A DNA stretch of 45,359 nucleotides from sequence record MT496971.1; one strand, 5' to 3'. Below, piece by piece: positions 6,356 to 41,982 of this stretch. The notes under the pieces are model-generated. The model was given only the letters and a program-made list of their open reading frames with translations. It was not told the origin of the DNA and made no database searches. This stretch comes from Escherichia phage Mt1B1_P10. Numbering within the stretch: position 1 is the stretch's first letter; every line of letters begins with the position of its first letter. Position numbers and translations under genes: made by a program.

Positions 6356-8252
6356 AATAAGTCCTTGAAATCCTTGCAGAAAGTGTATTTCGATTTGCCG
6401 ATTTACTCCTGTAATTCTGACCGTACACTCTTTGCTGCATAGCCACGGAAGTGTTGGTTACTCTTCGCTCAGTGCCATAATCTCCATAGAGCATCGCCCT
6501 ACGGAGGTGAGGTGTGTTCATAGCATGGATGTAATCGCGCATCTCCTGCGCTCTGAGGCGATTAATCCGTGTAACCTCATCATAGTCTATCTGAGAAGTT
6601 AATTGCCGTATAGCGCCATACAGAGCGTCTAAGCGGTCATCGTGCCGGAGGCTGTTCTTCTCAATCGTGATGTTCGACATTTGATTGAAAAGGCTGTAGG
6701 ACATGCGTAGCTCAAGCGGATAGTTCTGTACCGAATCAAAGTCCGATTTCACCATCTCTGCGTTAAAGATGAGCCTGTGGGCCGCCATGAGTGGCTCTAG
6801 CGTCTCAATGATACGCAACTCTTTCTGTCCGGTGGCGTAATCCTCCTCCAGAGTCACAGGCCATTCTCGTTCAAAGTAAGGCTTAATTACCGCCTCAAAC
6901 GCGCCATGACCAAAGTTCTTTTCAATGAATACCTCTTTAACACCAGCCTGCTTTGCGGCCTGCACAATGCGATTCAGGGACGATTCGCGGTATCCGCCTG
7001 GCACGCCGAAGCACTGATACACGTAAATGAATGTGCCGTGCAGGAAGACAATCGCTACACCCGTTTCATCTCCATTCTTACCGCCGCCCGCTGGGTCGAT
7101 ATACATAATCTTGCGGGTAACAGCACCCCATTCATATGGGCGAGCCACAGGTCGATACATGAAGTCTGTAGGTTTATTGCCATACTTCGGTGCATCTCCA
7201 ATGATGTTGATGGAGTCGTTGCTCCACGTAGGCATCACAGGGACTTCCTCAGTACCGAATGAAGTGAAGATGAGATTGTTTAGACGAAGTGGGTATCTGT
7301 CAGCATCCATCATGCGAGTGTTAAGCATGAACTGAAGCTGGAACTTAGCCGCACCCTGAGAGATTTCCTTCTCAATCAGCACTTCATCGTCGTACATTTC
7401 AGGTGCGCAAGGTGCACCACTGTTACCGTCCAACCCATAACCAGAGCGAAGTGCGGGGTTGTCCTTCATATCCTGCACAATCATAGGTGCAAGGAAGTCA
7501 CCATAGCATTGCTCCTGCTCCACTGAAGGATAACGTGCAGTCCAGATACGAACAGAGTAACCACGAGCAGGTAAGTTATTGTAGATAGAGTTTACGTTCT
7601 GAGGTGTCCCAAGGTAGATGATGTCACCAAATTGGTTAATAGATTCAAATTCCTTGGTCAACTCCTCAAGCAATGCACGGCCTGCTGCTGTACGAGCATT
7701 CTGCATCGATTCAACGTCATCCGCTAGAATAATATCAGCACGAGCACCCTGCATACCTGCTTCGATTGAGTAACAGGATACAGAGGGGGACTTATCGCTA
7801 CCACGTAGGGTGTAATGAATCTCAAATGCTTTAACGGATGCACGGTCCCCTGCGTAGATATCCGGCAGCATAAACTCAAGGAAGTCTAGGCCACGGAAGA
7901 TTTTCACCACCCAACCAGCGATTTCCTCTGCTCGCTTAGCGTTTTGGGATACAACCATGATACGCTTATGCGGTTCGTGGATAATACGAAATACCGTATA
8001 GATTGCTGATAGTGTTGTCTTAGCGATACCACGAGGCGCTTCGATGAGGCGATACTTATGCCCGTAGAATAGGAACTTCAAGATATCAGCCTGCATACGA
8101 ATCAGATGAGGGTTGCCTGCAATCAAGTTATGGATAACTGTATCTGCAAAGAGAAGCAAACCTTCCGCTGTATATTTAAAAGTGTCTTGTAGTTCTTTAA
8201 GGTTTTCCCACCGCTTTAATGCCTCTGCCTGTGATTCTCTAGCCTTTGCCAT
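6354..8252 (-). CDS. Terminase large subunit (T7 gp19-like), 632 aa
   Basis: Walker-A-like RGIAKTT, LQFMLN motif and overall similarity to T7 gp19 as recalled. Start moved to ATG at 8252 (SD AAGGAG), which overlaps the HNH stop. Confidence 0.9.
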   Translation of the reverse strand: MAKARESQAEALKRWENLKELQDTFKYTAEGLLLFADTVIHNLIAGNPHLIRMQADILKFLFYGHKYRLIEAPRGIAKTTLSAIYTVFRIIHEPHKRIMVVSQNAKRAEEIAGWVVKIFRGLDFLEFMLPDIYAGDRASVKAFEIHYTLRGSDKSPSVSCYSIEAGMQGARADIILADDVESMQNARTAAGRALLEELTKEFESINQFGDIIYLGTPQNVNSIYNNLPARGYSVRIWTARYPSVEQEQCYGDFLAPMIVQDMKDNPALRSGYGLDGNSGAPCAPEMYDDEVLIEKEISQGAAKFQLQFMLNTRMMDADRYPLRLNNLIFTSFGTEEVPVMPTWSNDSINIIGDAPKYGNKPTDFMYRPVARPYEWGAVTRKIMYIDPAGGGKNGDETGVAIVFLHGTFIYVYQCFGVPGGYRESSLNRIVQAAKQAGVKEVFIEKNFGHGAFEAVIKPYFEREWPVTLEEDYATGQKELRIIETLEPLMAAHRLIFNAEMVKSDFDSVQNYPLELRMSYSLFNQMSNITIEKNSLRHDDRLDALYGAIRQLTSQIDYDEVTRINRLRAQEMRDYIHAMNTPHLRRAMLYGDYGTERRVTNTSVAMQQRVYGQNYRSKSANRNTLSARISRTY

Positions 8253-8682
8253 TTCGCCACTCCTTAAAGAGAGAAGAAACTCTTGGTTCACTTTTACCAG
8301 TAAGTCTAGCGGTTTCTGCTACACCCTTACCTTGCAAGAAGCAATCTTTTAATCTTGCTAAATAGCTATTTAAGGCACTCCTATCATTTCCATTGCATTT
8401 TAAATAGTTATTCTCGCTTCTTGTTACCCACTCCAAGTTGCTAACATCATTGTTGTGCTTATCGCCGTCTTTGTGGTTTACTTCATTATTAGTTTTAGGT
8501 AAATACTTATAAGCCACTAATTGATGAACATAGACATTACGCCATTTACCTTCTTTATTTTTAATTTTAACTGCTAAATAACCCCTACCCGCCTTGAATG
8601 GTTTGAGAGGGGTGCCACCCTTTGAAAGGATGACACCAGAAGGTAAGATGGTATAACCTTGAGATTCACACCATCTATGCAT
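8239..8682 (-). CDS. HNH homing endonuclease (NUMOD4-like N-terminus, HNH core, C-terminal HTH-like), 147 aa
   Basis: VNHKDGDKHNNDVSNLEW and HQLVAY motifs; paralog of the HNH at 38540-38896. ATG at 8682 uses the last two codons (GAGGAG) of the upstream gene as its SD; its 3' end overlaps the terminase start. Confidence 0.8.
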   Translation of the reverse strand: MHRWCESQGYTILPSGVILSKGGTPLKPFKAGRGYLAVKIKNKEGKWRNVYVHQLVAYKYLPKTNNEVNHKDGDKHNNDVSNLEWVTRSENNYLKCNGNDRSALNSYLARLKDCFLQGKGVAETARLTGKSEPRVSSLFKEWRNGKG

Positions 8683-8683
8683 A

Positions 8684-8983
8684 TCACTCCTCTTTTGTAA
8701 ACTGAATTATCTTACCACTGGATGCCTCTCGGATAGCCTTGAGGCGCTTAGATAACTTGGACTCTTCCTGCTGTGCAGCAGGTGTAGCGGTAATACCATT
8801 ATCAAGAACCCACTTACACATAGCTCCAATGTCTTTACCAGACACTAAATGCAATGCTGCATCAGGATCCCCTTCTATAGTGTCCAGTATTGCCTGTGCT
8901 TTCTTATTAAAGATTCTGGTAATAGCACCATGCAGAATGCCAACCTCATCCTCTGTAGCTGCATGTTTATTGTGTACGCTCAC
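8684..8983 (-). CDS. Putative terminase small subunit (gp18 position), about 99 aa
   Basis: Assigned by synteny (holin, this gene, large terminase). Only plausible in-frame start is GTG at 8983 with SD GGAGGG; the track's TTG start at 9028 is unlikely. No motif-level confirmation. Confidence 0.45.
   Translation of the reverse strand: MSVHNKHAATEDEVGILHGAITRIFNKKAQAILDTIEGDPDAALHLVSGKDIGAMCKWVLDNGITATPAAQQEESKLSKRLKAIREASSGKIIQFTKEE
8875..8892 (-). promoter_or_regulatory. Promoter-like sequence inside the small-terminase ORF
   Basis: Minus-strand CAATACTGGACACTATAGAAGGGG: core from -12 to +4 matches the consensus, upstream AT-rich part differs. About 190 nt upstream of the HNH start. Confidence 0.45.
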
Positions 8984-9161
8984 GCTTCTCCCTCCAAATC
9001 TTGAACTTATTATAAAACCAGTCCCCAATTTGCAACACGGTATAAATGAATGTTGCTATTAACACCCAATTATCCCAACTGATACCGAGGAAGTACCCAC
9101 CTGATACGAGTGCAGGTGGCGCAAGCTTCACACCACTATCTACCAGTTCGGAGTTAATCAT
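8967..9161 (-). CDS. Holin, class II (T7 gp17.5-like), 64 aa
   Basis: ATG with SD AAGGAGG; ...WVLIATFIYTVLQIGDWFYNKFKIWREKRE parallels T7 gp17.5 as recalled. Confidence 0.75.
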   Translation of the reverse strand: MINSELVDSGVKLAPPALVSGGYFLGISWDNWVLIATFIYTVLQIGDWFYNKFKIWREKRERTQ

Positions 9162-30022: not shown

Positions 30023-30038
30023 GTCTCACACGTGAGAC
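30023..30038 (-). promoter_or_regulatory. Conserved 16-bp palindrome GTCTCAC-RY-GTGAGAC (copy 2)
   Basis: gtctcacacgtgagac directly after the stop at 30040 and just upstream of the promoter. Confidence 0.55.
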
Positions 30039-30039
30039 T

Positions 30040-30258
30040 TTATAAAACTGTGTTCACCTGAGCAATGTCATGCGCCGGAAGCGATACGCCGTGGCGTTTC
30101 CCCGTAGCTGGGTCGCTGTAGTTCACCACGTGCTGTCCGTCGCGCCAGATGTAGTGCAGGTCGGCATATGTGTCCCCTTCAGAGAAGGAGTGAAAAGTGT
30201 TGCCGCCAAGAGTTGTAATTCCTTTCTTGCAGTGCAGGGTTACGATTTGTACTTTCAT
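30040..30258 (-). CDS. Hypothetical protein, 72 aa
   Basis: ATG with SD AAGGAG. Confidence 0.5.
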   Translation of the reverse strand: MKVQIVTLHCKKGITTLGGNTFHSFSEGDTYADLHYIWRDGQHVVNYSDPATGKRHGVSLPAHDIAQVNTVL

Positions 30259-30267
30259 CCTTTCTCC

Positions 30268-31074
30268 TTAATATTCCGCGTCCTCATCCATCTCCGGTGC
30301 AGGAGTATCTTCTGCTTCAGGTACTTCCTGTGGAACAGACTCACCAGTATCCATAGATTTACGATTAGCTGGGGTAGCATCTTCCTCGTCTTTCTTCTTA
30401 GCCTTCTTCCATTCAGGGTCTTCTTCACGAGCAGCTTTGATAATAGCTTCTACGTGAGAGCCAGCAACAGACAGGTTCTTACCACGAGGTGTCTCGTTCA
30501 GGAAGTATTGACGTACCAAGTTAGCTGGGATGTCATCAAGGATTTCTTTGGTCAGCTTGTCGAAGGTGATATGACCTGTCATAGACAGACCTTCCTCTTC
30601 TACCTGAGCCAGTACAAGCTTCTTCAACTTATCAGGCATACCGCCAAAGCCTTTCCAGTTAACATACTTGAAAGTACCATCATCATTCTTGTCGCCAGAG
30701 CCAACCATAGTTGCAGTCAGACATTCACCGATAAAATCATCGAAGCCACCCAGCAACTCTTTAGGGTCAACTGCATTCAGGAACTTAGTCAGTGTTGCCT
30801 TATCACCAGACTTCAGAGGCACAGCCATCCATTGTTCCATGCGAGAATCATCTTCATTCTTATCGTCGTCACCCATCAGGATAATCTTAACAAGAACAAA
30901 GTTTGCTGGCTTCTTAACTTCAGTGGTATTACCTTTCTTAAAGATATCTTGGAAGGAACCAACATGAATGATGCCAGAGATTACTGCTTCATGATCACCA
31001 ACTTCAGGGTTCTTAAATACTTTACCTTCAGCTTTAGTAACCTGAGCACCAAAATCAAAATCACCACGTGCCAT
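30268..31074 (-). CDS. Hypothetical acidic-tailed protein, possible ssDNA-binding protein, 268 aa
   Basis: ATG with SD AGGAGA downstream of a promoter; acidic C-terminal tail ending ...EMDEDAEY, reminiscent of T7 gp2.5. SSB assignment is inference only. Confidence 0.45.
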   Translation of the reverse strand: MARGDFDFGAQVTKAEGKVFKNPEVGDHEAVISGIIHVGSFQDIFKKGNTTEVKKPANFVLVKIILMGDDDKNEDDSRMEQWMAVPLKSGDKATLTKFLNAVDPKELLGGFDDFIGECLTATMVGSGDKNDDGTFKYVNWKGFGGMPDKLKKLVLAQVEEEGLSMTGHITFDKLTKEILDDIPANLVRQYFLNETPRGKNLSVAGSHVEAIIKAAREEDPEWKKAKKKDEEDATPANRKSMDTGESVPQEVPEAEDTPAPEMDEDAEY

Positions 31075-31135
31075 TTATTTAGTCTCCTATTGTTACACTA
31101 CACAATCATAGGCCGAACTAAGCCGACCTATTGTT

Positions 31136-31153
31136 CTATAGTGTCCAGTAATT
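31136..31153 (-). promoter_or_regulatory. Phage RNAP promoter
   Basis: Minus-strand AATTACTGGACACTATAGAACAATAGG. Confidence 0.7.
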
Positions 31154-31448
31154 ACTTATGAACTACCTTAATACGTGCAATAGTATCTAGAGGGTAGACA
31201 TAACTAACACATTCACCATCTTCAACCTCTTGTACATTTACACTAGCCATAGTGTCACAAAGTGAAAGGCTCAATTGATGACAAGTTTCACCTTGAGTAA
31301 ACTCTGGACCACGATATGCATCTGCTTGTTCCACAGTAGTGATTGCTGTATCGTCTTCTTTAGCCAGACGAGTGTGACCTGCAACTTTACGCTGCTCTAG
31401 ATCACGAAAGATGATACCTACATGTTTAGCTTGAATCACTTCTTCCAT
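31152..31448 (-). CDS. Hypothetical protein, 98 aa
   Basis: ATG with SD AAGGGG. Confidence 0.45.
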   Translation of the reverse strand: MEEVIQAKHVGIIFRDLEQRKVAGHTRLAKEDDTAITTVEQADAYRGPEFTQGETCHQLSLSLCDTMASVNVQEVEDGECVSYVYPLDTIARIKVVHK

Positions 31449-36552: not shown

Positions 36553-38538
36553 TCAGAACTCACTTTCTTCATCGAAGTTAGTCTCTTCTATAGTGTCCGG
36601 TAAATCAGGCACCTCTTGCTGCCTTGCTTCACCTGTATCAAATGACTTAGTACGGGCTTGTGGTTCCATCAAACGTCCGGTCTGAATGTCACCTTTAAGC
36701 ATGACCTTGGTTCCAGTCCAGATACCTTGGTCGCGGTCTTTGACACATGAGATGTACGTGGTAGTCCTTTCGTCAAGCGTTTCAGCTCTTGTATTACGCT
36801 CAATCCCCAAGGCGTAAGATGCCCAGAATCCGATAGCGCCTGAGCCTCGGAAGTCAGAAAGGATAACTTCGCCACCTTCTTCGTGTTGGGTACGGTTTGC
36901 CGGAGGACGTGTAAGGTGTGATACAAGGAATATAGTAACCGGGTGTCGGTCTTTGATAGTACCAATCCGCTTGACGCATTCATCAAGTGCACCAACCTTC
37001 CCACCAAAAGCACGCTCATCTAATTTAATCCCCGTTAAGTTATCAATGATGATATTAGAAATGCCCATAGCCTCAAACTCTAGGCAAGTTTGCTCTACCT
37101 TTTCCATCGAATAGTCACCCTCTAGGTCAGCCACAAACAGCTTACCTGTATCAGCTACATAATCAATGGCGGCGTTAGCTTCTTCCTCGGTGTAGTCGAA
37201 CACCTCACGGTATCCATCTTCTTTCGGGTCGTTGGTTGGCGGTAACTCAATACGCTTATCAATCCACTTGCCGATAAAAGCACGGGACACCTTGACCATC
37301 GGGTCTTCTGTAGAAATGATGCCTACAGATTCACCGTGTTCTTCAATGAGGTGCTTAACTACTTCACGAAGGAACTCAGTCTTACCTACACCAGACCCTG
37401 CACCTACAATGATAAGCTGGTTCTTACGAATACCTAGCGTTACCTTGTTCAGCTTAGGCCAAGGCCATGATAGCCCTTGCTCTGGACGTGCAGCCTTGAG
37501 CTTATCCCTTTGAGATGCGATAGATTTAATCTGGCTACCAAAGACTTCATCAGATGACTTGGCATTAAACCAAGCATCAACAAACTCTTTAGCCTTGCCA
37601 GCCATCAATGCCTTGTTAGCATCTTTGCAACCAGAAGGGTATTCAAGGATATAGGATTTGCCAGGAAACAGGCGAGCCGCTTGCTGATTCTGCTTCTGCC
37701 CTACCTCATCTCCATCAAAACCCCATATAATCTTCTTAAATTGGGCGATGTGTTCACGGTTCTGTACTATCTCTTCAAGGCAAGACTCACCTTTATTGAC
37801 AGACCATACATGGTAAGGCTGGCCTTCCCACTTAGTACCCTTGGCAGAATCAAGGAGCATTTGCTGTGCTGCTAGTGCATCCAGTTCGCCGCCCACAATA
37901 AGCAAGCAATCCTTTCGTCTTCCCTTGTCTAACACGTGAGACAAAGTATTCATACCGAAAAGATCTTGCATACCAAAGAGTTTACCTAAATGACCAAACT
38001 TAAAGTCTTTAGGTAATGTGCGACACTTAGCGCCTACTAGCTCACCTTTCTCGAATCGTGGATAGTAATGCCGTGAGACTCTACCATCTTCATCGTGTCC
38101 GACACGTACATCGTACAATGCGCAAATGTCGCCGCGAATGTGTCGGGAAACAAGATTCTTACGCTTAAGCGTGAGGAACCATTCAACATCAAGTTTCCAC
38201 TCTGTTTCTTGGTCTGTCCTTTCTTGCTCATTCATGACCTCCCAACGGTCTTTCATACGCATGGCACCTAATGCCAATGCGCGGTCTTCTGTTGTCTTAA
38301 TCTTCCCTTCTTTAATGAGGTCTTGGAACTGACTAACAGTCCACTTAGTTGCCCCAAGAGGTAGGTCTAGAATATTAGAAGACTCTCCAGCTTTCTCATA
38401 ATAAGGCTTACCATTACTATGAAAATGTGCACGGTTGCAATATTTACCGCCGTCATCAAACCAGATTAAATGATTTTGGCTACGATCGTGACCATTGCGA
38501 GCACATTCGGGGCACACAGAATTATTTATAATAGCCAT
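36553..38538 (-). CDS. DNA primase/helicase (T7 gp4-like), 661 aa
   Basis: N-terminal zinc ribbon CPECARNGHD...CNRAH; Walker A GAGSGVGKT; acidic C-terminus ending ...NFDEESEF. Confidence 0.9.
   Translation of the reverse strand: MAIINNSVCPECARNGHDRSQNHLIWFDDGGKYCNRAHFHSNGKPYYEKAGESSNILDLPLGATKWTVSQFQDLIKEGKIKTTEDRALALGAMRMKDRWEVMNEQERTDQETEWKLDVEWFLTLKRKNLVSRHIRGDICALYDVRVGHDEDGRVSRHYYPRFEKGELVGAKCRTLPKDFKFGHLGKLFGMQDLFGMNTLSHVLDKGRRKDCLLIVGGELDALAAQQMLLDSAKGTKWEGQPYHVWSVNKGESCLEEIVQNREHIAQFKKIIWGFDGDEVGQKQNQQAARLFPGKSYILEYPSGCKDANKALMAGKAKEFVDAWFNAKSSDEVFGSQIKSIASQRDKLKAARPEQGLSWPWPKLNKVTLGIRKNQLIIVGAGSGVGKTEFLREVVKHLIEEHGESVGIISTEDPMVKVSRAFIGKWIDKRIELPPTNDPKEDGYREVFDYTEEEANAAIDYVADTGKLFVADLEGDYSMEKVEQTCLEFEAMGISNIIIDNLTGIKLDERAFGGKVGALDECVKRIGTIKDRHPVTIFLVSHLTRPPANRTQHEEGGEVILSDFRGSGAIGFWASYALGIERNTRAETLDERTTTYISCVKDRDQGIWTGTKVMLKGDIQTGRLMEPQARTKSFDTGEARQQEVPDLPDTIEETNFDEESEF
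36588..36605 (-). promoter_or_regulatory. Phage RNAP promoter (within primase 3' end)
   Basis: Minus-strand ATTTACCGGACACTATAGAAGAGAC. Confidence 0.7.
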
Positions 38539-38539
38539 G

Positions 38540-38896
38540 TTATTTCCTTAGTAAACAGCCGTGATAAGTATTGTATGCAACTGACACCCACTCTAGGTTA
38601 TCCGCATTGTTGTTCAACTTGTTACCATCTTTATGATTTACAATATCAAAACTGGTAAGATTAGGGACGAAAGCAAGTGCAACCAATCGGTGTACTTTCT
38701 CAGTTCTAGGCGGGAAGTAGCTAAAGTCACCATGCTTTCTCATAGACAGACGAAGATAGCCATCTTTATCTGGGCTTCCCTTCATAATTTTAGGTGTCTT
38801 ACGCTTATGCTTGCCCCAATAGGCATTTGCCACTCTGCCCTTGTTAGATACTAGATATTTACCATCATAGCCTTTTACTGGTTTCCATATTTCCAT
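38540..38896 (-). CDS. HNH homing endonuclease (NUMOD4-like plus HNH), 118 aa
   Basis: WKPVKGYDGKYLVSNKGRV, HRLVALAF and VNHKDGNKLNNNADNLEW motifs; paralog of the HNH at 8239-8682. Confidence 0.8.
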   Translation of the reverse strand: MEIWKPVKGYDGKYLVSNKGRVANAYWGKHKRKTPKIMKGSPDKDGYLRLSMRKHGDFSYFPPRTEKVHRLVALAFVPNLTSFDIVNHKDGNKLNNNADNLEWVSVAYNTYHGCLLRK

Positions 38897-38899
38897 AAC

Positions 38900-39028
38900 T
38901 TAGAACTCCAACGCAGCGCGTTTAGATGCACGGTCACGGATAGGTTTATTCAGCTTCTTGCCTTTCTTCTGCCCTTCTTCCATGTCAAAACGGTTAGCTT
39001 TACGGGTCATCTTCTCAAAGTTACGCAT
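38900..39028 (-). CDS. T7 gp1.1-like small basic protein, 42 aa (below track cutoff)
   Basis: ATG at 39028 with SD GGAGA; MRNFEKMTRKANRFDMEEGQKKGKKLNKPIRDRASKRAALEF, strongly reminiscent of T7 gene 1.1 (MRNFEKMT...) as recalled. Confidence 0.55.
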   Translation of the reverse strand: MRNFEKMTRKANRFDMEEGQKKGKKLNKPIRDRASKRAALEF

Positions 39029-39058
39029 GGTTAAATCTCCAAAGTGAGTTAGTCTTAT

Positions 39059-39076
39059 CTATACTGTCCGGTAAAT
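39059..39076 (-). promoter_or_regulatory. Phage RNAP promoter (variant with G at -5)
   Basis: Minus-strand ATTTACCGGACAGTATAGATAAGAC, 31 nt upstream of the gp1.1-like ORF. Confidence 0.5.
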
Positions 39077-39081
39077 ACGAA

Positions 39082-39097
39082 GTCTCACATGTGAGAC
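39082..39097 (-). promoter_or_regulatory. Conserved 16-bp palindrome GTCTCAC-RY-GTGAGAC (copy 5)
   Basis: gtctcacatgtgagac immediately upstream of the promoter at 39059-39076. Confidence 0.55.
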
Positions 39098-39244
39098 AGC
39101 TTAGGTCTGCCCTTCCTCTAAATAGTAATAAGAGGAAGGAAGGAGGTAATAGGTACCCCTAGATAACTTATATAACCTTTAATACCTATTACTTCCTTTT
39201 ATATCCTTTTATCTTCCCCTTCTTTCCCGTCTCCGACGGCTATC

Positions 39245-39262
39245 CTATAGTGTCCGGTAAAT
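39245..39262 (-). promoter_or_regulatory. Phage RNAP promoter
   Basis: Minus-strand ATTTACCGGACACTATAGGATAG; the following ~150 nt have no ORF and end at palindrome copy 5. Confidence 0.65.
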
Positions 39263-39264
39263 AA

Positions 39265-39280
39265 GTCTCACATGTGAGAC
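39265..39280 (-). promoter_or_regulatory. Conserved 16-bp palindrome GTCTCAC-RY-GTGAGAC (copy 6)
   Basis: gtctcacatgtgagac between the RNAP gene end and the promoter at 39245. Confidence 0.55.
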
Positions 39281-39354
39281 ACGTTTATGTTAATGGAATG
39301 TTACATGTAGTAGGTAAAAGAAAAGGCCACTCCCGAAGGAATGGCCTATTAATA

Positions 39355-41982
39355 TTATGCGAAGCAATAGTCAGATACTAAGATTTCGTTAAGGTCAAAC
39401 TCTCCTTGCTCTGGCACTTGGATTCCGGTGTCTACTAACCAGCGCTCTTCATGCTCATCTAACAGGCTTTGCAGAGCGTTACGGCCTTGATACATCTTCA
39501 CCATTTCTGCCCTTAGACTATCACGTAGGTCTGCGGTGCGGCCTGCATGAGTACCGAAAGAGTCATGGATAACTGCAATGGAGGTAATACCTTTATCCAC
39601 TAGGTCGCACACCGTTAGAATCAGGTGGCTAGCATCATGGCCGTGCACGAAGTTAGGAGCAGCAGCGCCCATCATAGCCGTTTCATCCACTACGTCCGTT
39701 TCAATCTGTAGACTCATCTTGATTTCTCCCATCAGGCAAGTGGATACGCGGAGCATATCAGTAGCCATAATCTTTTGTTGCAGAATGAAGCCTGTGGGCA
39801 AGGTATACTCTAAGCCTTCATTTCTTTTAGCTGCGAAACGGGCAAGTTGACGAATCATTTTCATTGCCACTATAGGAGCTTTAACCACTTCCGAAATAGA
39901 AGGCCAGATTAAAGCTGTCATATAGTTATAAGCTGCGCTAGGTGTCAGGCTGTCTTTGCGGTCATTATCAAAAGGATGTACAGGATTGGCGGTACGCCCT
40001 TCCGCAATAGCCCGTTGGGCCTCTTTTTCTTCCAAATCAACGATATAATCAATCACTGACTCACGGCAGGTTAGACGTGTGCTGCCGTAAGGTAGTGTCA
40101 TTACGGGCTTTTTGGTCAGGCCGCGAGTGATTCCTATCATATCCCACGCACTAGCCATGCTACGCAGTTCCGCACCTGTTAAAGTCACGCTGCCAGAAGT
40201 GAAGGTTTCCGCATCCTCTGCATTCATGTATGCATAATTCTTCTGAATTACTACCTGCGCAACGGCACCATAAATATCTTGAGGGGAGTCAGAGGGCTTA
40301 AGGTTTACCGCTTTCGCACCTACTGCATCGCGTAGCATAGCACTGTAGTGCTGGATACCAGAACAACTACCATCTTGATGGACGGGGAGGTGCGTCATGA
40401 ATTGGTCTTGCGTGCCTTCATCCAGTGCATCCAGATAACGCGCATATTCAAAGCACCAAGCAAGGAAGCCGTAAGGGGAGTCGGCATTTACCCATTGAGT
40501 GAAAGTAAGCGGATCCGCTGCAATGTCGCGGCACATGTCTTGAAATTCACTATCCAGCACGTTAGCGGTGCGCACGTCAAAAGTCTTCTTATCCCAACCC
40601 CAGTTATTAGCCCCGTTCACCAAAAACCATTTAAGCGCCTCAGCGCTATCAAGGCGCTGCCCTTCGGTAAAACGGAGCAATGCCTTGCCTAAGTCGTTTG
40701 ATTGCGGAGAGAGCGTGCTAGATTGCGCGTAGACGCGGCTGCGGCTGTCCAGTGCATACACGAAGTAGATGGCGTCAAACTGGCTGTATTTACGTGCCTG
40801 CCCGACCATGCGGACGGTCGCCGCCGATTTGCTGCCGCGCTTAGTTTCAGCGGTATACAGCTTGGTACATTCGCCTTTCCAGTTGATGAAGGCTTGCCAT
40901 TGTTCCGGCGTTAGCATCTCTTTAAGTTCACGGCCTCGCAGGTGCTGGAACTCTAACGGCACTGGATTAGCTGGCTTGTTCTCACGGTCGATGAGCGGTT
41001 TAAAGGAAGGCACACCATAGCCGAGGTCTAGACGTATAACGTCCTCCACAACCTGTAAAACCTCTTTATTAACCTGCCACTTAGTTGCCTGCAAAGCGTT
41101 AACAGCCTTATAAACGGCTGGCATTTGCTTTTTGGTCAGCTTGCGGACGTGCTCACGATTGCCTTTTACCAGACGAATACGGCTTGCTACTTTCTCAGTA
41201 TGAAACCCACCGTTAAAAGGTGATACCCAAGGGCGGGGAGGTATAACGCAAGGTGCATAGGCAGGGCTGAGCTGCGCTACATGTTCCTTAAATGCAGTTA
41301 TCCACTCTCCAACATGTTCACTGGTCTGTAAATAGTAAACACCATGCTTTCCGCCGTTAGTGCGCAAGGTACGAAGGAAGACAGGTTGACCATTGAAGAA
41401 TACACTATTCTCCAATATTTCGAGCAAGGTCATACCGATTTGCAGCAAGGTGTCTTTAGGCCATGCCTCCCAACGGGAGAAATCCGCGTCACGGTCAGCA
41501 ACAGATTTCTCAGCTACTACCGCTACGTTGTGCGCATGACGATAAGATTTAGTCTTGCTAGCCTTAAGTGACTTCTTCACTTTCTCAAAGTACTTAGCTG
41601 CGTGACCTTCCAGCTTGCTAAAACGTACTTGGTCTTCGATGCGGTCCGCTACATTCATAGCGATTGCTTGTAAGGTAACGTCTGTATTCAGCATATCCAT
41701 AACGATTTTCATGGTGATATATGCTGCCACTTCGTTTCCTACGCAGTTAATGAAAGCTAATGCACGTGGTGCACGACCTCTCTTGCCTTCGTATTCTTCC
41801 TTGTAAGCCTGAATACCTTCCGCCATAGGTGCGATTAGTTCGGACAATAAGCGGCGATTCCATGCCGTGTCTGATTCATTACCGGATGCAATCTGGCGTT
41901 GTTGGTCCGCTTCAAAGCGACGGATGCCGCCGTTAAACATTTCTTCTTCAAGTTGAAGTTGAATAGCGTGTAGGTCTTGCAT
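39355..41982 (-). CDS. Single-subunit DNA-directed RNA polymerase (SP6-type), 875 aa
   Basis: N-terminus [32 protein letters not shown] matches SP6 RNAP as recalled; catalytic motifs [16 protein letters not shown] and [11 protein letters not shown]; ATG with SD AGGAG. Confidence 0.95.

Follow-up and report, generated by a model that had tools for sequence, protein, structure and literature searches.

The free-standing HNH homing endonucleases form a well-known group of enzymes, and in other phages homing endonuclease genes (HEGs) have been described beside essential genes and at the boundaries of recombination (Barth, Dunham & Seed 2023, PMC10448857; PMC12724721). In phage T4, the free-standing HNH gene mobE lies between nrdA and nrdB and is dependent on upstream promoters; MobE nicks the 5' end of the downstream, essential nrdB gene at nucleotides 122-126 in phage that lack mobE, with co-conversion of flanking markers, and the Mob proteins are described as combining an HNH domain at the N terminus with a C-terminal domain specific to each protein (PMC2790892). 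A second point of reference is I-HmuI, the HNH nicking homing endonuclease encoded within the DNA polymerase intron of Bacillus phage SPO1 (PDB 1U3E). For SP6/K1-5-like phages, a literature search for HNH genes at the junction considered here returned annotations and a genome announcement, with no analysis; the announcement of the phD2B genome lists an HNH endonuclease beside the primase/helicase (PMC4246154).

The gene examined here, referred to as HNH-A, resembles T4 mobE in being an intergenic, free-standing HNH gene situated between two conserved genes, served by upstream promoters and associated with the same genomic footprint. Whereas the nick site of MobE and its dependence on the HNH motif have been mapped experimentally, the target of HNH-A is proposed by analogy, and HNH-A differs from the T4 Mob proteins in lacking a C-terminal domain. 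HNH-A shares with I-HmuI a NUMOD4 beta-sheet domain followed by an HNH beta-beta-alpha-metal core, with 38% identity over 114 aligned columns and with the catalytic His and a metal-binding Asn conserved in both. However, I-HmuI is intron-encoded and 174 aa in length, whereas HNH-A is free-standing and, at 118 aa, is devoid of the two C-terminal helices and the helix-turn-helix. Asp74 of I-HmuI is replaced in HNH-A by Asn (N87), a residue that is invariant among the close homologues of HNH-A, and, while I-HmuI is an established nicking enzyme, HNH-A is known here from its sequence and predicted fold. As in the HEG-bounded blocks of other phages (PMC10448857), including those of the I-HmuI-like HNH enzymes of Skunavirus (PMC12724721), the nuclease gene neighbours an essential gene and borders a highly identical block shared by phages that are otherwise diverged, and one location can be occupied by several distinct HNH genes. 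The HNH-A block is unlike the >10-kb island of other phages in that it spans 634 bp and exchanges a single primase zinc-binding domain.

Organisation of the gp8/primase junction

The window, that is, the whole 45,359-nt stretch of DNA that was analysed, is from Escherichia phage Mt1B1_P10 (MT496971.1). All of the window's genes in this region lie on the minus strand, in the order RNA polymerase (39355-41982), the 42-aa gp8 (38900-39028), the 118-aa HNH-A (38540-38896) and primase/helicase (36553-38538), with the HNH and gp8 ORFs together accounting for positions 38540-39028. The T7 gp1.1-like gp8, which forms the upstream flank of the insertion site, matches the Pfam family Phage_1_1 (E = 5e-14). 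HNH-A, a putative free-standing HNH homing endonuclease gene, starts 3 nt past gp8 and stops 1 nt ahead of the primase/helicase gene, and its product contains NUMOD4 (PF07463; residues 2-51, E = 6e-12, 46 bits) and HNH_3 (PF13392; residues 67-110, E = 2e-10, 40.6 bits against a cut-off of 24.8) domains. The Pfam E-values of HNH-A and of the 42-aa ORF are far beyond chance. HNH-A additionally matches phrog_59, "HNH endonuclease" (E = 1e-37), and an exact-sequence match identified the protein as QNR52635.1, deposited under the name "HNH homing endonuclease". A previous reading of the region, made from the sequence only, had placed an HNH gene between a gp1.1-like gene and the primase; the ORFs and the NUMOD4, HNH_3 and Phage_1_1 matches bear this out, and that reading was right in its main thrust.

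The closest phage records to the window are those of the genus Vectrevirus (K1-5/K1E group, Molineuxvirinae). In K1-5 and KMB47 the junction is empty and reads ...GGGAGTTCTAA GTT ATGGCT..., comprising the gp8 stop, 3 nt and the primase start. Alignment revealed that the empty-site sequence ...GAGTTCTAAGTT runs directly into ATGGCT... in these phages, and that it is at this join that the window carries the insert ATGGAA...TAAC; the 358 bp of inserted DNA (ATGGAA...AGGAAATAA C) are thus placed exactly between GTT and the primase ATG. In the window the gp8 stop codon TAA occupies 38900-38902 and the HNH-A ATG 38894-38896, with 3 nt between them, and gp8 and the primase are both full-length beside the insertion.

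The insertion has also rearranged the translation signals. A GGAG Shine-Dalgarno sequence (38906-38909, minus strand) is located within the 3' end of gp8, 9 nt upstream of the HNH-A ATG, and in the empty-site phages K1-5 and KMB47 the primase ATG is served by the same GGAG at the same spacing; the alignment shows, then, that HNH-A has taken over the ribosome-binding site used by the primase of those phages. A new site for the primase, AAGGA (38545-38549, minus strand), is present within the last HNH-A codons, CTA AGG AAA (L-R-K), and the 78% and 71% identical orthologues of HNH-A described below retain TAAGGAA at this position, showing that the last codons of HNH-A itself, as read from the sequence, supply the primase ribosome-binding site. 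The proposal that HNH-A is translationally coupled to gp8 stands in part: the 3-nt spacing is compatible with coupling, while coupling as such is only plausible.

Perfect matches to the phage RNA polymerase promoter were identified directly upstream of gp8 (ATTTACCGGACAGTATAG, 39059-39076, minus strand) and again at 39245-39262 (minus strand), upstream of the gp8-HNH-primase operon. Since promoter matching of the region revealed these two upstream promoters and no phage promoter between gp8 and primase, HNH-A is co-transcribed with gp8 and primase. A group I intron context, such as that of I-HmuI, was considered and rejected: a scan of positions 37800-39500 against Rfam (E <= 1) gave no intron match, the three matches obtained being sub-threshold, unrelated and confined to the intergenic region between the RNA polymerase gene and gp8. 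On the strength of this negative result for group I introns, HNH-A is considered free-standing.

Distribution and the transferred block

Examination of gene coverage revealed HNH-A in none of 84 related phage records (0/84). The gene is thus far from being present in all relatives, and the empty site that the sequence-only reading had proposed to look for in related genomes is the one found in K1-5 and KMB47. A tblastn search of 50,697 phage records returned no full-length match to HNH-A at >49% identity. Among the 60 relatives listed, approximately 35 have a span of ~1243-1255 bp at the junction, corresponding to the empty site, and approximately 20 have a span of ~1460-1470 bp, corresponding to a 72-aa gene like K1E gp8.5. 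The gp8.5 gene at the K1E junction is unrelated to HNH genes, and the idea that it represents a decayed HNH was rejected, since it has no similarity to any HNH. LL11 and the unannotated PhiNW-E1 have a span of ~1670 bp, the extra DNA in LL11 encoding a different 145-aa HNH, 41% identical to HNH-A, at the same junction; VEc3, by contrast, carries its 138-aa HNH on the upstream side of gp8. Further HNH lineages are located immediately upstream of the primase in the Zindervirus BP12B and in the Acadevirus phages PM85 and PM93.

LL11 gp12, BP12B gp09 and PM85 gp03 share with HNH-A the position upstream of the primase start and the N-terminal NUMOD4+HNH architecture, and the LL11 and BP12B genes, like HNH-A, are linked to a distinct primase 5' allele. 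However, these three proteins are only 35-44% identical to HNH-A, are 145-194 aa in length as annotated, and have a related C-terminal end (...HKGW...) that is missing in HNH-A; they are separate lineages at the same hot spot. Taken as a whole, the occupancy of the gp8/primase junction marks it as a recurrently invaded hot spot.

Besides the window, the HNH-A lineage itself was seen only in assemblies of public sequencing runs, the carriers having been obtained from Logan/ENA assemblies indexed by exact protein; no member at >50% identity was found in IMG/VR or in JGI/ENA metagenome contigs. A 98% identical copy is present in a Zindervirus-like metagenomic contig (L005/L006), orthologues of 78% and 71% identity in two unclassified Molineuxvirinae (L007-L011 and L012), and copies of >=90% identity in five or six Vectrevirus-like metagenomic contigs (L180-L185). 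In all carriers the gene lies between the gp1.1-like gene and the primase.

The window was compared with KMB47, its closest relative, and L005, using sliding 60-nt windows and informative sites. KMB47 is 93-100% identical to the window from RNA polymerase through gp8 and, beyond 38260, over the remainder of the primase, whereas between these segments it has no HNH gene and its identity drops to only 50-65% per 60-nt window (~55%) along the opening ~276 nt of the primase. Conversely, L005 is 48-82% identical upstream, 95-100% (about 98%) identical across 38896-38263 and ~70-97% identical downstream; in summary, its identity is 97-100% per 60-nt window in the block and 60-90% in the flanks. These comparisons delimit a 634-bp transferred block (38263-38896, minus strand), a putative co-conversion tract that consists of the 358-bp insertion and the first ~276 nt of the primase. 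Within it the window and L005 agree at 351/357 nt of the HNH gene and at 267/276 nt of the primase (nt 1-276), as against 86% in the rest of the primase (binomial P = 3e-9 for the comparison with 267/276). The nearest relatives of L005 (BP12B, 83%) are also without the block; therefore, the cassette is foreign to both backbones.

The left crossover interval (38897-38915) is bounded by the last site of KMB47 type (38915) and the first of L005 type (38896) and falls in the last nucleotides of gp8, which are conserved in all lineages; indeed, the last ~35 nt of gp8 are conserved in donor and recipient lineages alike. The right crossover interval (38251-38263) is defined by informative sites at which homology between donor and recipient resumes. 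The primase is consequently divided by an identity break: codons 1-92 (38263-38538, minus strand), which cover the Cys/His zinc-binding domain and linker, represent a foreign allele that is 54-59% identical to Vectrevirus primases at the amino acid level, as against 96-99% for residues 93-310. The nearest known alleles of the first segment are those of Klebsiella and Proteus Molineuxvirinae, at 69.5%. A comparable arrangement was observed in LL11 (Vectrevirus) and BP12B (Zindervirus), which have in common a distinct primase 5' allele (~130 nt, 88-94% identity) beside their own HNH genes.

Five further Vectrevirus-like carriers have an identical right boundary, while the tract in L185 falls ~20 nt short of it. 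Counting independent homing events from variable tract ends was attempted and abandoned: because the right boundary is set by the resumption of homology, a single difference of ~20 nt is too little for the purpose, and the Vectrevirus carriers could descend from one acquisition.

Two positions were considered as possible traces of immunity or repair. A W41L change in gp8 (38910), which falls within the left crossover interval, is carried by the window alone; being absent from every other carrier and from IMG/VR, it was rejected as an HNH-linked immunity or repair scar. Codon 11 of the primase is GAA or GAG (CPEC) in six HNH-linked alleles and GCC (CPAC) in four HNH-less Vectrevirus alleles, three of them empty and one with gp8.5, and is the only nucleotide difference that separates all of the HNH-linked from the HNH-less alleles examined. 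The HNH-less phages KPN7 (Klebsiella) and PmP19 (Proteus) also have CPEC, for which reason codon 11 was set aside as an immunity polymorphism; the GCC to GAR change is retained as a candidate resistance position, and as a weak lead.

The explanation that accounts best for these data, and which is considered probable, is that HNH-A is a free-standing I-HmuI-like HEG, inserted exactly between the gp8 stop and the primase start, that is mobilised by homing with co-conversion. Several properties of a HEG are present: a precise empty site, a sporadic distribution, the absence of an intron and transfer with flanking sequence. Upon co-infection, by analogy with MobE, HNH-A would nick or cut the allele that lacks the HEG, at the gp8/primase junction or close to it and most likely where the 5' end of the primase gene encodes the zinc finger; recombination with the HEG-carrying genome would then repair the break. 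Of the two crossovers, one would be resolved in the final ~20 nt of gp8, which are conserved, and the other only where homology resumes, ~276 nt into the primase, such that the HEG and the linked, presumably cleavage-resistant, primase 5' allele would be copied together to give a chimeric primase. The length of the hitch-hiking segment (276 nt) and the near-constant right boundary follow from the fact that the primase 5' ends of donor and recipient are only ~55% identical; since the right boundary coincides with the resumption of homology, the position of the cut is not revealed by the tract. The cleavage activity of HNH-A and its target site are what we infer from the analogy. As judged from the sequences, HNH-A has evidently jumped between phages, carrying the first 92 primase codons along, and the block has the pattern that would be expected as the footprint of homing with co-conversion.

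HNH-A is, in these respects, an ordinary, textbook free-standing homing endonuclease, and one already annotated as an HNH homing endonuclease. What the locus adds is a well-resolved natural co-conversion tract, in the form of a 634-bp cassette with defined crossover intervals at a recurrently invaded junction, together with a chimeric primase, in a phage group of therapeutic relevance. Matched donor (Mt1B1_P10) and recipient (K1-5 or KMB47) phages are now identified. Cassettes of this type explain local mosaicism in Vectrevirus genomes, which is of relevance when phages are mixed in cocktails.

Protein conservation and competing explanations

The best solved relative of HNH-A by sequence is I-HmuI (phmmer, E = 3e-15, residues 4-110). 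An AlphaFold (AF2) model of HNH-A predicts a confident, compact fold (pLDDT 93, pTM 0.85) in which six beta-strands precede the first helix, and a Foldseek search with this model retrieved 1U3E (E = 1.4e-8, probability 1.00, TMq 0.73, rmsd 2.9, 114 columns), the runner-up having an E-value of 0.07. H88, N100 and N109 of HNH-A align to H75, N87 and N96 of I-HmuI. Residues N87, H88, D90, N95, N100, L101, E102 and W103 are invariant across 48 homologues, and N109 is >=90% conserved in the same set. Sequence and model together, then, place HNH-A in the HNH_3 family, with an N-terminal and catalytic architecture like that of I-HmuI. Its homologues at E <= 1e-10 number at least 986 among database proteins.

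An explanation that dispenses with homing altogether is that HNH-A is an inactive, C-terminally truncated relic, spread as a passenger inside a mosaic block by general homologous recombination. In support of this view, HNH-A ends at residue 118, equivalent to approximately residue 105 of I-HmuI, where the DNA-binding helices and helix-turn-helix of the latter begin; sequence alignment revealed that the C-terminal minor-groove helices and helix-turn-helix are missing from HNH-A and from its 118-126-aa orthologues, whereas most homologues are 160-200 aa in length and have C-terminal NUMOD or I-HmuI-like domains. There is no room for a separate DNA-binding ORF, because the HNH-A stop lies 1 nt from the primase ATG. 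The missing helices and helix-turn-helix, to which I-HmuI owes much of its target length, leave the length and specificity of the predicted target uncertain. The block boundaries also coincide with the limits of homology, and the same footprint would be left, without the action of a nuclease, by the exchange of a mosaic block through ordinary homologous recombination.

Despite this, the state of the ORF argues against decay. The short architecture is kept in the 98%, 78% and 71% orthologues (118-126 aa) and is therefore a stable minimal form as opposed to a fresh truncation; other short NUMOD4-HNH proteins (112-141 aa) occur in unrelated genomes. In comparisons of HNH-A with the 78% and 71% orthologues, synonymous divergence is saturated (pS 0.79-0.93) and non-synonymous divergence is low (pN 0.19-0.23), the dN/dS ratio with L005 is 0.13, and an intact HNH-A ORF of 118 aa is kept by all carriers; on the basis of these codon comparisons the ORF is under purifying selection. 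Every catalytic and family-invariant residue is retained, and the predicted compact fold points the same way. The relic explanation is accordingly regarded as unlikely, by comparison with homing.

Purifying selection would also fit with an accessory nuclease that benefits the phage, whether by exclusion of competitor markers, by damage to host or competitor DNA or by assistance to replication or recombination, and that is maintained by selection at the level of the phage. HNH-A is driven by the promoters of the DNA-metabolism operon and adjoins the primase, and I-HmuI-like HNH enzymes of Skunavirus show marker exclusion against a related phage (PMC12724721). However, the 84 related records from which HNH-A is absent are all of viable isolates, and the gp8/primase junction is occupied, in one phage or another, by several unrelated HNH lineages or a non-HNH gene, such that an accessory function as the main reason for the presence of HNH-A appears quite improbable. 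Marker exclusion is, in any case, a population-level outcome of homing, and this explanation is not truly exclusive of it.

A more far-reaching form of the homing explanation would have HNH-A and the primase zinc-binding segment constitute one co-adapted mobile cassette, which swaps the template-recognition domain of an essential enzyme. Were this so, homing would introduce an allele 54-59% identical to the resident one, with a change in priming-site preference or primase-helicase function, and homing endonucleases would drive functional domain swapping in phage replisomes. More speculatively still, the minimal HNH-A, which is without a C-terminal DNA-binding domain, might be targeted through the primase domain linked to it. 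The sequence data on the cassette show co-transfer only, for which the non-homology inside the block is explanation enough, and co-adaptation is considered distinctly unlikely.

The HNH gene at the terminase site

The other HNH gene of the genome, HNH-T (8239-8682, minus strand), encodes a 147-aa protein with an HNH_3 domain only (E = 3e-11), also matches phrog_59, and is located between the genes for the small terminase (8684-9028, DNA_Packaging_2) and the large terminase. The sequence-only reading had described HNH-A and HNH-T as paralogous homing endonucleases at two insertion sites, on the strength of shared motifs. The motifs are present in both proteins, as VHRLVA...VNHKDGNKLNNNADNLEW and VHQLVA...VNHKDGDKHNNDVSNLEW, and similarity extends beyond the minimal motif, protein alignment giving ~70 alignable residues (BLASTP: 41% identity over 70 aa, E = 2e-12, 46.6 bits). 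The motifs common to the two proteins are, however, the family-wide invariant positions listed above (N87 to W103). That a homing-type HNH gene occupies a second insertion site was also upheld, by the family match and by the empty site in relatives.

Neither gene has the fixed position of a terminase-associated packaging HNH of the HK97 gp74 or GVE2 type: HNH-A is part of the replication module, and HNH-T, although between terS and terL, is missing from most relatives. It is present at 96-98% nucleotide identity in ~17/85 relatives, including VEc3, KMB47 and AAPEc6, none of which has HNH-A, and is absent from K1-5 and LL11.

Paralogy in the sense of duplication within the genome did not survive comparison with other phages. 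The LL11 HNH matches HNH-A at 60.8 bits, unrelated metagenomic proteins match it at 81-104 bits, and the VEc3 HNH, whose gene lies upstream of gp8, matches HNH-T at 76.3 bits; the two proteins have only the HNH_3 core in common, HNH-A consisting of NUMOD4 and HNH without a tail and HNH-T of HNH with a C-terminal tail. That one gene arose from the other by duplication in this phage lineage is exceedingly improbable and is already contradicted by the sequence data, for although the two share a Pfam family, a PHROG, 41% identity over those 70 residues and a low GC content (HNH-A 39.8%, HNH-T 38.1%, genome 45.1%), each is more closely related to proteins of other phages than to its counterpart in the genome, their N- and C-terminal architectures differ, HNH-T occurs without HNH-A in KMB47, VEc3 and AAPEc6, and HNH-A came within a block shared with a Zindervirus-like phage. 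Their closer relatives elsewhere and their independent distributions indicate, therefore, that HNH-A and HNH-T are independent acquisitions from one large family.

The junction between gp8 and the primase gene

The junction between gp8 (38900-39028, minus strand) and the primase gene, occupied in the window by the HNH gene at 38540-38896, is used by a different gene in some other phages. In K1E the 72-aa gp8.5 gene (942-1160 in L002) lies at exactly this junction, and gp8.5 is carried by approximately one-third of the relatives, namely K1E, PDP21P6 (L014) and some 20 further records of Vectrevirus. Comparison of K1E gp8.5 with the HNH proteins revealed no similarity; the 3' end of gp8.5 also provides an AAGG ribosome-binding site for the primase. 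Codon 41 of gp8 is TTG (Leu) in the window (position 38910). Every other phage and contig compared has TGG (Trp) there, the remaining carriers of the HNH gene among them. The substitution, whose exact 24-mer was not found in IMG/VR, is private to the window and falls inside the left crossover interval (38897-38915), the gp8-side end of the transferred HNH and primase block.

HNH genes at other sites

The second HNH gene of the window (8239-8682), flanked by terS and terL, is carried by only about 17 of the 85 relatives, with the terminase-site span being 432 bp shorter in K1-5 and LL11. This gene is a second presence/absence HEG polymorphism. The closest relative found for its product (47% over 90 aa) is the HNH protein of the Vectrevirus VEc3, which represents a third lineage. 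The VEc3 gene (1080-1496 in L004) is flanked by the genes for the RNA polymerase and the gp1.1-like protein, a site that differs from the primase-side junction, and a visibly similar HNH protein is encoded after the RNA polymerase gene in the Acadevirus PM93 (312-725 in L099).

Promoters and palindromes upstream of gp8

The intergenic region between the RNA polymerase gene and gp8 (39029-39354) contains two phage promoters in tandem, with a palindrome in front of each; an A/T- and AGG-rich repeat stretch lies between them, immediately 5' of the gp1.1-like gene. In phage T7, the primary replication origin has an AT-rich region together with promoters in tandem ahead of gene 1.1, and the window region resembles it in layout. 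An Rfam scan of the region returned sub-threshold matches only. The palindrome, GTCTCACATGTGAGAC, is perfect over 16 bp and occurs seven times in the window at ≤2 mismatches versus zero expected by chance (13473, 30023, 35082, 36516, 37927, 39082 and 39265). Three copies (39082-39097, 39265-39280 and 30023-30038) lie 2-15 nt upstream of phage RNA polymerase promoters. Since equivalent positions in other SP6-like contigs carry different palindromes (GTCCAACGTGTTGGAC in the Zindervirus-like L005, GTCCAACACGTTGGAC and GTCCAACGCGTTGGAC in the unclassified Molineuxvirinae L007 and L012, respectively), the palindrome may be a protein operator or an RNA hairpin that is conserved in position.

Overlapping reading frames

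A 363-aa ORF on the plus strand (30070-31161) overlaps a 268-aa ORF on the minus strand (30268-31074), and neither has a Pfam match. All other genes of the window are on the minus strand, and the plus-strand ORF is probably spurious.
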